NCBI GenBank assembly: GCA_033977065.1
Contig: JAXCHI010000003.1
Span: 224,001-288,000, forward strand
DNA from: Candidatus Algichlamydia australiensis
GTDB taxonomy: Bacteria; Chlamydiota; Chlamydiia; Chlamydiales; JAJFMI01
Direction: 5' to 3'
DNA: 64,000 bases
In this document: positions 24,001 through 27,000 of the stretch, piece by piece
Layout of the letters: every line of letters begins with the position of its first letter
How positions within the stretch are numbered: position 1 is the stretch's first letter
Program-made: the position numbers

Positions 24001-27000
24001 ATGGCAGAGATGATCGTTGCTGAAGCGAGCATAGAGCGCGCCAAAAGTAAAAAAGAGAAAATTGCTCTCTTAGGGTACCGCGCAAGCCGCTCACTTGCCT
24101 ACCTCATTCACCTGCAGTCTCGCTATCTCTTTGAAAGTCGCTTTTACGAAAAGCGGAAAGAGAAATATTTAAGTCCTGACGAGCTTAATGCCCTCATGTT
24201 AGAGGCGCAACAAGAGTGCTATTCAAACTCTCTCTCTGAATACCACCCCTTGCTCTGGGCTTCTAGACTGCACTTCTACCTTACAGACGTTCCTTTTTAT
24301 AACTTCCCCTATACATTTGGTTGTCTCTTCTCATTCGCAATTTACCGAAGAATAAAAAAAGACCCTACAGCGTTTGAAGAGGCCTATATTCCTTTCCTTC
24401 ATGACACCGGCATGATGTCTACTGAGGAGCTTGCAAAAAAGCACTTTAATATTGATATTGAAACACCTGAATTTTGGAGAGAAGCCGTTGCAGCTACCCT
24501 TCGGGACGTACATGAGTTTTTAGAACTTACTGAGACAGCCGCTACATGTATGTGACAAAAAACTCCTCAAGCCAGTATAGATAGGATTATGAGAATTTTT
24601 TCTTCCCTCTTTACCATCGGAGCATTAGCTATTGGAGCATGGTATACCAACGACCGCTACCCGGATTTGAAAAATCAAGCACTCGAGTTTTTTCATACCT
24701 CTACATTTCACACACTAGAAGTGCGCCACACTGGCAAACAAATCATGGAAAACAATCGCTATGAACTTCTCAAAACAGCTCAGCACAAATACAAAGACGT
24801 TACTTTAAAGTTTTATCCGTATCTCCTTATGGAGGTAAAATATACCCAACCAAATAACACTACTAACGAAGGAATTATTCTTTGGGATCTTGTCGACGGA
24901 GAGATGGTTGTGAACACCCATGATTGGGAAAAAACACACGGTTTTGGTGATTGCATTCACGCAGGCCTTGAGCGCAATGAATTTAAAATCATCAATCTCC
25001 TTGCACAAAAGGGTGGTTCTATTGATCGTGAAGGACTTACCTCATCGCTCCATGTAGAAAACGAAGTACTCGACAACTGGCTTGAGCGTTGCCGTCGCAA
25101 GAAGCTCATCGTACAAAAAGGCAACCAGTATCGATTGCATATGCAAACGCCACGCCTTAATGTCCTTCCCCACACAACCGTGGATGACCGTCTTGTGACA
25201 AAACAATCTGAGAAAGCGCAGCGTATTCCGCGTCGCTTTTCTCCCATACAAATTCGCAAAATGGCAGAGCGCGCGTTTGGATACGATTTTGCGATTCGCA
25301 GCACACTCGATGTCTACCTCCCAATCTTTAGCATCACAGTTGAAAACCCCGACAGCACACTTCATACAAGCAACTGGAATGCCGTCAACGGAAAGCGCTT
25401 ATCACACTCTTCCTTCATTGAGTAAATCTTTTTTTGTGTTTGTAAATTAATAAAAAACTAGATAGTGTCGTCAAATCCTTATGATCACCCTGTTTTTAAC
25501 GTGAAAGCTCTCGCGTCGCTAGTTTTTTCAAATACATAAACAAGTAAAATATTTATAACGAGGGCTTTTATCTAGCCAAAAAAGTCGATTTTTTGCATAC
25601 TTAGTGGTTCTGGAAAGATGGCTGAGTGGCCGAAGGCGCGTCCCTGCTAAGGACGAGTACTCCTTGTGGGTACCGAGGGTTCGAATCCCTCTCTTTCCGA
25701 ATTTCTAACAATACAGACTAAAATAGAAAAAGTAGGATTTAGAAAAAACTTGGGATGAGAACCCTCAGGGTTCGACGGCCAGCATAGCTGGACGGGGCTT
25801 TTGAGCGCAGCGAGAAAGAGTCCGCAGGACCGAAGGGCTGTACAGCCCGTAGCCAATCCCTCTCTTTCCGAATTTCTAACAATACAGACTAAAATAGAAA
25901 AAGTAGGATTTAGAAAAAACTTGGGATGAGAACCCTCAGGGTTCGACGGCCAGCATAGCTGGACGGGGCTTTTGAGCGCAGCGAGAAAGAGTCCACAGGA
26001 CCGAAGGGCTGTACAGCCCGTAGCCAATCCCTCTCTTTCCGAATTTCTTACAAAGCAAATTAGAATAGAAAAAGCAGGATTTAAAAAAACTTGGGATGAG
26101 AACCCTCAGGGTTCGACGGCCAGCATAGCTGGACGGGGCTTTTGAGCGCAGCGAGAAAGAGTCCGCAGGACCGAAGGGCTGTACAGCCCGTAGCCAATCC
26201 CTCTCTTTCCGAATTTCTTACAAAGCAAATTAGAATAGAAAAAGCAGGATTTAAAAAAACTTGGGATGAGAACCCTCAGGGTTCGACGGCCAGCATAGCT
26301 GGACGGGGCTTTTGAGCGCAGCGAGAAAGAGTCCGCAGGACCGAAGGGCTGTACAGCCCGTAGCCAATCCCTCTCTTTCCGAATTTCTTACAGAACAAAT
26401 TAGAATAGAAAAAGCAGGATTTAGAAAAAACTTGGGATAAGAACCCTCAGGGCTGAAGGATTGAAAGCCCAAAGTCAATTCCTATTTTTCTTATCTGAAA
26501 TAGAAAAACCTTCCCTGTTTCGGATTATTTTCGTTACTGATATTCTCTGGAGGTATGTCCAAAGAACCTCAAAAAATCAAAGTCGCTCCCAATTCCAAAG
26601 AGTCCGAGATGATGGTACTCGGCTCCATGCTCTCCAATGTCAATGCGTTGAATGCAGCGGCTGATGCGCTGGACGCTTCAGACTTTTACTACACTGAACA
26701 TGGCTTAATTTTTGAGACGCTCAAAGAGGCGTATAAAAAAGATAAGCCTGCTGACATTCATCTTGTTGCAGAGGAGCTAAAGCGCAAAAAGAAACTCAAA
26801 GAGATTGGCGGTATTGGCTATTTGACAACACTTGCGCAGTATGCGGGAACTTCAGCATATGTTGAAGAGTATGCGCAACTTGTCAAAGATAAGGCGATTT
26901 TGCGACGCATGATCACTGCTGCGCAGGTAATTGAAAAAAAAGCGCTTGAGGAAGAGGACGAGGTCAGCAAAACTCTTGATGATGCGCAAAGCCTCTTTTT

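Follow-up and report, generated by a model that had tools for sequence, protein, structure and literature searches.

The tandem array directly behind tRNA-Ser(GCU) in this Chlamydiales genome is very probably a divergent member of the RtT RNA family (RF00391; rttR in E. coli), a tRNA-linked tandem repeat. RtT repeats have long been known behind E. coli tRNA genes, having first been seen behind tyrT, and were reportedly described by Bosl and Kersten in 1991 as 178-bp repeats of the tyrT-tyrV operon. The element behind tRNA-Ser is real, but as a set of divergent RtT copies it represents no new kind.

The window, that is the whole 64-kb stretch of DNA analysed, contains a single tRNA gene, tRNA-Ser(gct), according to ARAGORN. 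The features of the locus are as follows, with positions counted along the window unless a contig (C2 or C3) is named; R1 denotes a model built from 8 Chlamydiales sequences, none of them from this genome.

25611-25700, + strand: tRNA-Ser(GCU) gene (ARAGORN; Rfam tRNA, 56.2 bits at 25612-25699)
25701-25870, + strand: RtT-like unit 1 (sequence; R1 match at 25736-25870, C3:249736-249870, E 1.2e-14)
25871-26041, + strand: RtT-like unit 2 (R1 match at 25907-26041, E 2.0e-14; TRF)
26042-26211, + strand: RtT-like unit 3 (R1 match at 26077-26211, E 1.8e-14)
26212-26381, + strand: RtT-like unit 4 (R1 match at 26247-26381, E 1.8e-14)
~26382-26493, + strand: decayed fifth unit, partial (sequence; BLAST 90.9% over 88 nt)

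TRF places the array at 25684-26452 with a period of 170, 97% matches and a score of 1405; its figure of 4.5 copies is that of this assembly alone, since contigs from public runs carry the array in short pieces, none of which spans it. The array starts in the T loop of tRNA-Ser(GCU), and the last 15 nt of this tRNA, ATCCCTCTCTTTCCG (25685-25699, from T-loop position 59 to the discriminator), are copied at the close of each full unit. Five exact copies are present, ending at 25699 (the tRNA itself), 25870, 26041, 26211 and 26381. ARAGORN, TRF and the sequence thus agree with an earlier note on this DNA, which had described a tandem array behind tRNA-Ser(GCU) whose units end in a copy of the neighbouring tRNA's last 15 nt. 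Unit 1 begins with an AT-rich spacer (25701-25751), which is followed by a structured part (25752-25870) made up of GGGATGAGAACCC, hairpin P2, GGGTTCGA, a hairpin core and the tRNA 3'-end copy. Unit 3 has a spacer unlike that of units 1 and 2, and is 94.7% identical to unit 2 by BLAST. In the fifth unit a spacer is followed by GGGATAAGAACCC at 26434, and part of the interior has been deleted; its tRNA-end copy is degenerate. Being the most diverged copy, this unit is probably the oldest. The dnaB gene follows the array directly, with no cargo between them.

On the reading proposed here, a unit begins with a spacer equivalent to the tRNA's own downstream flank and continues with an inverted copy of the tRNA's T arm whose loop reads ATGAGAA in place of ATTCGAA; the acceptor 3' strand is inverted along with it in some genomes. 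The 5' half of the T arm then recurs in direct orientation (GGGTTCGA), ahead of a core of ~80 nt with three or four GC-rich hairpins, and tRNA positions 59-73, again copied directly, complete the unit. The copies of opposite orientation are predicted to pair on the tRNA strand as helices P1 and P2, closing a multi-hairpin fold. The covariation reported earlier reappears, and is strong, in an alignment for which the structure was set by hand on A3 and the sequences were then re-aligned by model: 94.7% of cells are paired, where shuffling gives 77.8%, and both sides have changed in 19 of the 29 pairs. MAFFT with RNAalifold on the raw units had given a poor structural alignment, and was replaced by this procedure. 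Across phyla, the corresponding figures are 94.3% paired and 75.8% shuffled. P1 and P2 co-vary with the T stem of the partner tRNA, the four tyrT units having A-U/U-A pairs against G-C/C-G elsewhere. G-U pairs favour the tRNA strand (53 G-U against 15 A-C cells) and the acceptor-like closing helix in this genome amounts to 5 bp only, both as previously observed.

A BLAST search of the whole genome with one unit returns copies solely at C3:249684-250452 and C2:358735-359566. The C2 locus comprises tRNA-Ser(UGA), three full units, one cut unit and an upstream tRNA/core chimera, and BLAST and the sequence both bear out the second array that had been reported there. R1 gives seven full matches in this genome (E 4e-15 to 2e-14), all at the C2 and C3 loci, so that the confinement of the copies to two tRNA-Ser loci also stands. 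The same is true of the patchy spread within the order, where 25 of 151 genomes have R1 matches and none of the 27 genomes of family f36 does, and of the linkage to tRNA-Ser. A same-strand tRNA-Ser lies just upstream in 32 of 39 related loci, and all four Ser isoacceptor types serve as partners within Chlamydiales. One further locus of the 39 follows a tRNA-Pro, whose T arm is the same as that of tRNA-Ser(UGA), and six have no tRNA in the locus; of these six, three reach a contig end or come close to one (L071, L093, L100), and a fourth stands on a contig of 1.5 kb (L097). BLAST with one unit against 61 relatives finds the element in the same genus only, the matches elsewhere being just 16-nt tRNA ends. 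A 'phylum' search with R1 drew genomes of the same order alone, and is therefore uninformative on other orders.

The claim that the element was previously undescribed is overturned by the shared motif, by the annotation of E. coli and by cross-matches between R1 and RF00391. The motif GGGATGAGAACCC..GGGTTYG occurs behind tRNA genes in at least 119 genome_contigs stretches from ~10 phyla, and the partners include tRNA-Arg, tRNA-Lys, tRNA-Glu and tRNA-Tyr; a family limited to Chlamydiales, or to tRNA-Ser, is thus too narrow a description. A Citrobacter copy has matches in 5177 of 5426 E. coli genomes, where the features are 'RtT sRNA | tRNA-Ser', and the E. coli serW locus consists of a tRNA-Ser followed by three tandem annotated RtT sRNA. 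R1 matches these three (E 6.5e-11 to 1.1e-9) as well as four units, including rttR, of the tyrT locus in K-12, over the full model length (E 4.7e-13 to 7.8e-12). The R1 matches in E. coli have the same coordinates as the RF00391 matches there.

The Rfam model itself, which has a gathering cut-off of 45 bits, scores 132.9-137.5 bits on the K-12 units and 45.1-48.6 bits on the serW copies. Among the Chlamydiales relatives it gives 46.8 and 46.1 bits in G184, 44.1 in G216 and 41.3 in G039, with one further match at 38.1 bits and six at 25.5-32.2 bits. It finds no match at E <=0.1 on L031 or on L098, a locus of the same genus, and none at E <=10 on this genome's own units, which thus fall below the gathering score. 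This silence explains why the link to RtT was missed in the earlier note. Membership therefore rests on the intermediate model and on shared anatomy: the homology of R1 to bona fide RtT units, the same-strand position directly downstream of a tRNA, and tandem units of ~170-180 bp, each ending in the 3' end of the upstream tRNA.

The likeness to E. coli RtT extends to detail. Both kinds of unit stand in tandem directly behind a tRNA on the same strand, measure 165-180 bp and close with the 3' end of their own tRNA, and they share a 5' motif (A/G)GGATGAGAA, hairpin P2, GGTTCGA and C-GNA-G hairpins. The K-12 units have the same architecture with 178-bp spacing, their ending being the tRNA-Tyr 3' end with CCA; the CCA is not copied in the units described here, unlike in K-12, because the tRNA genes of this genome do not encode it. 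Other differences from RtT are the closing helix of just 5 bp and the tpr reading frame of E. coli, no counterpart of which was noticed in the units here. The partner is tRNA-Tyr at E. coli tyrT and tRNA-Ser here, as it also is at E. coli serW.

The label of a new RNA family should accordingly be dropped, the element being RtT, already named by annotation in enterobacteria. The Rfam model of RtT is centred on the E. coli tyrT copies, barely reaches the tRNA-Ser-linked copies of E. coli itself (45-49 bits) and misses most copies outside enterobacteria. A wide and diverse alignment with clear anatomy offers far better ground for a structure model of RtT, and permits a direct test of whether selection acts on RNA or on DNA. 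A literature search found no paper on RtT outside enterobacteria or as a tRNA-end-copying element, which does not prove that none exists.

By homology to E. coli RtT, the units are probably co-transcribed with the tRNA and processed. Reading from the tRNA-Ser promoter would continue through the units, and the transcript would then be cut into RNAs of ~170 nt with a tRNA-like 3' end. A comparable origin is known for 3'ETS-leuZ of E. coli, an sRNA cut from the 3' external transcribed spacer of a tRNA. RNAs of that type likewise come from the trailer of a tRNA transcript by way of tRNA-processing enzymes; they differ in being single short base-pairing sponges, without tandem repeats or a tRNA-end copy. 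The RefSeq note on the E. coli homologue, 'rtT sRNA, processed from tyrT transcript', fits co-transcription, and in this genome the interval between tRNA-Ser(GCU) and the units holds no terminator-like site, so that read-through would be possible. According to PMC3318445, a single repeat unit of the tyrT operon encodes rttR, and Table 4 of PMC4147364 places RtT RNAs among the expressed non-coding RNAs of Klebsiella. As to function, PMC3318445 and a preprint (10.1101/2024.07.17.603846) go no further than to connect RtT with the stringent response as something likely, and describe how it acts as unknown. Several observations count against a mechanism acting through RNA. A single unit folds with no exceptional stability (z = -0.81 on the + strand, -0.03 on the - strand), the closing helix in this genome is short, and C-GNA-G loops, reported to be far more stable as DNA than as RNA, predominate. 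In other genomes, among them G039, G108, G147 and G149, an intrinsic terminator lies between the tRNA and each unit, which argues against efficient co-transcription there. The patchy spread and the decay of distal copies count against a host function as such.

In its behaviour the family is closer to a hitch-hiking, duplicative element attached to tRNA 3' flanks than to a host gene retained in all genomes. The sequences suggest that arrays gain and lose units through recombination, either between the repeated tRNA ends or from one whole unit to another. It is conceivable, if rather unlikely, that selection on this same RtT family acts on DNA: the units would be selfish foldback repeats forming hairpins in the single-stranded DNA of the tRNA strand, recombination or template switching within the shared T-arm sequence would spread and amplify them at tRNA 3' ends, and the RNA would be a by-product of their place behind a strong promoter. 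Whichever tRNA is the partner, the unit carries a copy of its 3' end at both extremities, inverted at one and direct at the other; where one genome has copies behind two different tRNA-Ser genes, these share lineage-specific cores. As a rule the copies form arrays, the terminal ones are decayed and the spread is patchy. In two families tRNA/core chimeras have arisen, their junction falling precisely at GGGGGTTCG(A). The tRNA strand carries 168 C-GNA-G pentamers against 14 for the equivalent on the other strand and 37 +/- 6 in shuffled sequence, whilst GNRA loops are rare (8) and UUCG loops do not occur. PMC13037366 reports that C-GNA-G mini-hairpins made of DNA are highly stable and resist nucleases, their RNA counterparts being much less stable, which favours selection on DNA, as do the terminators between tRNA and unit in several genomes. 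The preprint already cited reports stress-raised, exonuclease-resistant DNA cover over the tyrT-rttR region (10.1101/2024.07.17.603846).

Other findings count against selection on DNA. At E <=1e-5 no integrase, DDE or HUH transposase or reverse transcriptase turns up among the 80 ORFs that flank the 39 loci, and one flanking ORF, at L073, has only transposase-type DNA-binding domains (HTH_28/HTH_32). The genome itself has neither a Y1 transposase nor a reverse transcriptase, and only two recombinases of Xer size. GC skew suggests that the strand which folds does not serve as the lagging-strand template here, and gives no support to an idea built on that template. In E. coli, RtT has been reported to be a genuine RNA product of processing (RefSeq; PMC3318445), and compensatory changes are equally expected of a functional RNA. 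An extension of the same thought to RtT as a whole is correspondingly tentative: RtT may be a pan-bacterial, selfish class of tRNA-end-copying foldback elements that fold in single-stranded DNA, the E. coli RNA being a by-product or a later co-option. Just as tentatively, its copies could be seen as rebuilding the 3' end of the partner tRNA, inverted and direct, around a core of C-GNA-G mini-hairpins. The range covered by such a class includes Chlamydiales, Verrucomicrobiota, Paenibacillus, Bacteroidota, Proteobacteria and candidate-phyla bacteria.

Other repeats invite comparison with the RtT-like units. REP/BIME, the Rickettsia palindromic elements and the Correia elements are likewise non-coding, GC-rich hairpins, multi-copy, patchy among relatives and with decaying copies. 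These are scattered over the genome, whereas the units here lie solely behind tRNA genes and, unlike REP/BIME-type repeats, rebuild the tRNA 3' end in both orientations. In the att duplications made by tyrosine integrases, too, the tRNA 3' end is repeated directly, starting in the T loop as it does in the units here, and genes of defence or toxin-antitoxin type (Fic, AbiEii, DUF4143, Schlafen-like) often lie beyond the arrays. That the units are leftover attL/attR scars of integrase-borne islands targeting tRNA-Ser genes is nevertheless very improbable, and the idea was rejected. There is no integrase beside any of the 39 loci (PF00589 in 0 of 80 flanking ORFs), this genome has no distal copy of the tRNA end, dnaB follows without cargo, and an inverted copy and covarying hairpins are not features of att scars.

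Two further candidates were set aside. A search of this 93.4%-complete genome with PF01797 (Y1/HUH transposase) gave no match and copies occur at two tRNA loci only, so an IS200/IS605-type (PATE-like) hairpin element does not fit; the idea of such an element with its core inserted after TTCGA was discarded, since the core is never seen without the 5' motif and there is no Y1 transposase. A retroelement using a primer-binding site is opposed by the lack of a reverse transcriptase in the genome and by the CCA going uncopied where the gene does not encode it. Hardly any probability remains for the earlier note's own interpretation, a new structured RNA specific to Chlamydiales and tied to serine tRNA biology: the silence of Rfam's RtT model on this genome's copies and the use of all four Ser isoacceptors in the order speak for it, but the same motif and architecture recur in ~10 phyla with many tRNA partners, R1 matches E. 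coli RtT, RF00391 reaches its cut-off on a Chlamydiales copy, and one Chlamydiales copy lies behind tRNA-Pro. Furthermore, the T arm GGGTTCGAATCCC is common to the three tRNA-Ser and to tRNA-Glu in this genome, so that sequence, and not serine identity, can explain the bias towards tRNA-Ser.

The motif also appears in four stretches from viral contigs. In L228 it looks like chance; in L229 and L230 a tRNA-type 3' end and a terminator precede it by ~50 nt.

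The tandem array behind tRNA-Ser(GCU) in the window is very probably a divergent array of RtT, the RNA family (RF00391) represented in E. coli by rttR behind tyrT and tyrV, and by analogy with that system its units would be read through from the tRNA transcript and then processed. The tRNA scan, TRF and the sequence itself confirm that the array is real and was accurately described in an earlier note. This genome (1.8 Mb, 7 contigs) carries units at one further site only, on contig C2.

Features of the array in the window and of the second locus
25611-25700, + strand: tRNA-Ser(GCU), sole tRNA gene of the window (Rfam tRNA, 56.2 bits)
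25684-26452: tandem array (TRF: period 170, 97% matches, 4.5 copies, a figure from this assembly alone, the array being spanned by no public contig)
~26382-26493: fifth unit, shortened and diverged
26555, + strand: dnaB, next after the array
C2:358690-358832: chimera of tRNA-Ser(UGA) body and unit core, outside the window, upstream of the intact tRNA-Ser(UGA)
C2:358889: second unit locus, behind tRNA-Ser(UGA): 3 complete 165-bp units and one that is cut

The array starts in the T loop of tRNA-Ser(GCU), and the last 15 nt of this gene, ATCCCTCTCTTTCCG, form the terminus of each unit, in five exact consecutive copies. In public run X1 one contig continues differently after the same tRNA-Ser end (window 25701), opening with the tRNA 3' end in inverted orientation; the sample may contain a related organism or strain with a further variant of the element. 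The tRNA-Ser and dnaB genes lie on the + strand despite its GC skew, which is negative in all eight 8-kb bins of window 1-64000 (-0.025 to -0.151). Elsewhere in the genome, a 100-nt 'tRNA-Ser(tga)' reported by ARAGORN at C4:19384-19483 has a 3' end without a T arm, lies in coding-like sequence and is probably a false call.

The relationship to RtT is seen in both directions. R1, a model built from eight units of other genomes with a hand-set structure, was trained on Chlamydiales sequences only. It nevertheless matches three E. coli serW RtTs (E 6.5e-11 to 1.1e-9) and, over the whole model, four units in the K-12 tyrT locus, home of tyrT, tyrV, rttR and tpr (E 4.7e-13 to 7.8e-12), at the same coordinates as RF00391 matches of 132.9-137.5 bits. 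Conversely, RF00391, with a cut-off of 45 bits, matches Chlamydiales copies at 46.8 and 46.1 (genome G184), 44.1 (G216), 41.3 (G039) and 38.1 bits, with six further matches at 25.5-32.2 bits. Of 5426 complete genomes of E. coli, 5177 match a Citrobacter copy behind tRNA-Ser(GGA), and the underlying annotation reads 'RtT sRNA' and 'tRNA-Ser'; in one of these the infA-clpA interval holds a tRNA-Ser and three tandem 'RtT sRNA' features, described there as 'rtT sRNA, processed from tyrT transcript'. The earlier view that this is a new, undescribed family is therefore wrong, being ruled out by the R1 matches to E. coli RtTs and the RF00391 matches to Chlamydiales copies. E. coli copies linked to tRNA-Ser reach only 45.1-48.6 bits under RF00391, and these low scores, like those in Chlamydiales, indicate that the Rfam model is centred on the tyrT copies. 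The units of this genome, which are more diverged, fall below any listing with RF00391, which explains why the earlier Rfam search saw only the tRNAs.

Comparison with the partner tRNA divides a unit into five parts. The downstream flank of the tRNA itself is followed by the 3' part of the tRNA in inverted orientation, in which the T-loop complement ATTCGAA has become ATGAGAA; this copy always covers the T arm and, in 9 of 42 cases, much of the acceptor 3' strand too. Next, the T-stem 5' strand and first loop bases are repeated in direct orientation (GGGTTCGA). Three or four hairpins form the core, and the unit closes with tRNA positions 59-73, again in direct orientation and extended to 59-76 for tRNA genes that encode CCA, such as those of E. 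coli and Citrobacter. Inverted and direct copies pair as helix P1 (GGGAU with AUCCC, plus an extension) and helix P2 (GAACCC with GGGUUC). The tyrT units of E. coli have the T-stem letters of tRNA-Tyr in both helices, A-U and U-A standing in place of the G-C and C-G of other units. Paired cells make up 94.3% of the total across phyla, against 75.8% in shuffled controls.

Within Chlamydiales the earlier claims on spread, tRNA linkage and covariation were reproduced. Presence in the order is patchy (R1 positive in 25 of 151 genomes and in 13 of 151 in a second draw), the small-genome family f36 lacks R1 matches (0/27 in the second draw), and the seven full matches in this genome all fall within the two loci. 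A tRNA-Ser of any of the four isoacceptor types (GGA, UGA, GCU, CGA) lies on the same strand in 32 of 39 matched loci, its end 9-102 nt upstream of the GGGAT of the first unit in 30 of the 32, distances at loci L032 and L062 being distorted by a partial match and an upstream chimera. Of the remaining seven loci, one follows a tRNA-Pro and six contain no tRNA. Three of these six are located close to or at the end of their contig (L071, L093, L100), and a fourth is on a contig of only 1.5 kb (L097). The covariation also recurs: across 65 distinct rows 94.7% of cells are paired (77.8% shuffled), 19 of 29 pairs change on both sides, and the score is 0.263 (0.090 shuffled, at most 0.054 slid), figures flattered by an alignment fitted to the model. 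The frequent G-U pairing on the tRNA strand was likewise recovered, and the excess of G-U-type over A-C-type cells (53 to 15) identifies this as the folding strand. An order-wide search with a motif that leaves out the tRNA end (GGGATNNGRAYCC, gap, GGTTYG) matched 35 of 401 genomes; read by eye from the listed matches, these comprise 19 with GGGATGAGAACCC, 13 with antisense tRNA-Arg genes and 3 doubtful cases.

The element extends well beyond this order. A cross-phylum scan of one genome per species (GGGATGAGAACCC, gap of 1-12, then GGGTTYG) matched at least 119 stretches. Among the matches listed (80 by title) are Paenibacillus, several Clostridia, Sphingobacterium and other Bacteroidota, many Verrucomicrobiota, Lentisphaerota, Beta-, Gamma- and Alphaproteobacteria, Saccharibacteria, Uhrbacteria, Fibrobacter, Prosthecochloris and others. 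They share a layout of tRNA, often a terminator, motif, hairpin core and a copy of the same tRNA's 3' end, and the units are frequently tandem. Counted over 123 loci, the nearest upstream tRNA is Ser in 54 (GGA 18, UGA 14, GCU 13, CGA 9); Arg(UCU) accounts for 10, Glu for 7 and Lys for 5, with further tRNAs in smaller numbers and one tmRNA, and 27 have none in the short flank. The T arm GGGTTCGAATCCC is common to the three tRNA-Ser and the tRNA-Glu of this genome, and that of the order's single tRNA-Pro partner is identical to that of tRNA-Ser(UGA); the preference for tRNA-Ser, like some of the motif-search bias, may thus be an effect of sequence and not of serine identity. This breadth, and the reading of RtT as a copier of tRNA ends regardless of which tRNA precedes it, may be new; a literature search whose reach excluded the key papers of 1978-1991 found none on either.

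Several lines of evidence favour an RNA. Annotation presents the E. coli homologue as a processed RNA, and in K-12 the annotated rttR runs from 8 nt past the tyrV CCA to precisely the CCA that closes the copied tRNA end, as expected from tRNA-type 3' processing. According to a passage of PMC3318445, experiments showed that a single repeat unit in the tyrT operon encodes rttR, and Table 4 of PMC4147364 lists several RtT RNAs of 166-170 nt in Klebsiella RNA-seq. In the window, read-through is plausible, since the stretch from the tRNA to the units holds no terminator-like site and the array itself no promoter-like one. Templated correction of quasi-palindromes in DNA can also yield compensatory hairpin changes, and covariation alone is therefore no proof of a functional RNA.

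It is possible, though less likely, that selection on this same RtT family acts on the DNA. Such a role would be in keeping with the clear intrinsic terminator between tRNA and each unit in several genomes, the decay of distal copies and the patchy spread among relatives. The C2 chimera, which has its own copy of the promoter region, consists of the tRNA-Ser(UGA) body as far as GGGGGTTCGA, joined without a gap to an RtT-type core and a broken 3' end. A like chimera occurs in a different family (L062:1150-1305, genome G064), and the two are joined exactly at the shared GGGGGTTCG(A), which suggests recurrent recombination between the T arm of the tRNA and its copy in the unit. In a crude hairpin scan C-GNA-G loops dominate: the tRNA strand has 168, shuffled sequences have 37 +/- 6, and the equivalent for the other strand numbers 14, against 8 GNRA and no UUCG loops. 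Passages of a review (PMC13037366) credit such mini-hairpins with extraordinary stability as DNA and far lower stability as RNA, and place hairpins of this type also at single-strand initiation sites. A dedicated mobility enzyme is disfavoured: the 80 ORFs flanking the 39 loci include no integrase, DDE or HUH transposase or reverse transcriptase (one, at L073, has HTH_28/HTH_32 transposase-type domains only), and this genome has no Y1 transposase, no reverse transcriptase and no island bounded by a distal copy of the tRNA ends. Its only recombinases are two proteins of ~300 aa, which from their size we take to be XerC/D.

A number of further observations concern individual loci. The K-12 tyrT-tyrV spacer (L233:1164-1295) is itself a full RtT unit (RF00391 132.9 bits, R1 E 4.7e-13), so that the tyrT/tyrV duplication resembles one more array step; genome G065 likewise has two tRNA-Ser(UGA) copies ahead of its units. 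In E. coli O169:H41 a CRISPR-DR4 repeat match (L232:2161-2188, 50.1 bits) lies between three RtT units and clpA. On the minus strand at L073:1628-1739 (contig C42 of G216) the 3' end of a group II intron (RF00029, 41.6 bits, cut-off 40) adjoins a 3' fragment of an RtT-like unit, and the intron seems to have inserted into the hairpin core. Defence or toxin-antitoxin-type genes are frequent just past the arrays of seven Chlamydiales loci (L076, L102, L103, L078, L099, L092, L084), among them Fic/DOC, AbiEi/AbiEii, DUF4143 ATPases, Schlafen/AlbA_2, DUF6602 and AAA_16. Housekeeping synteny is kept on the upstream side (znuA, pheS, dnaB). Finally, L103 (G149, contig C168) has two Acido-Lenti-1 RNA matches upstream of a tRNA-Ser(UGA), at 180-225 (-) and 400-445 (+), scoring 39.9 and 44.1 bits with a cut-off of 37.
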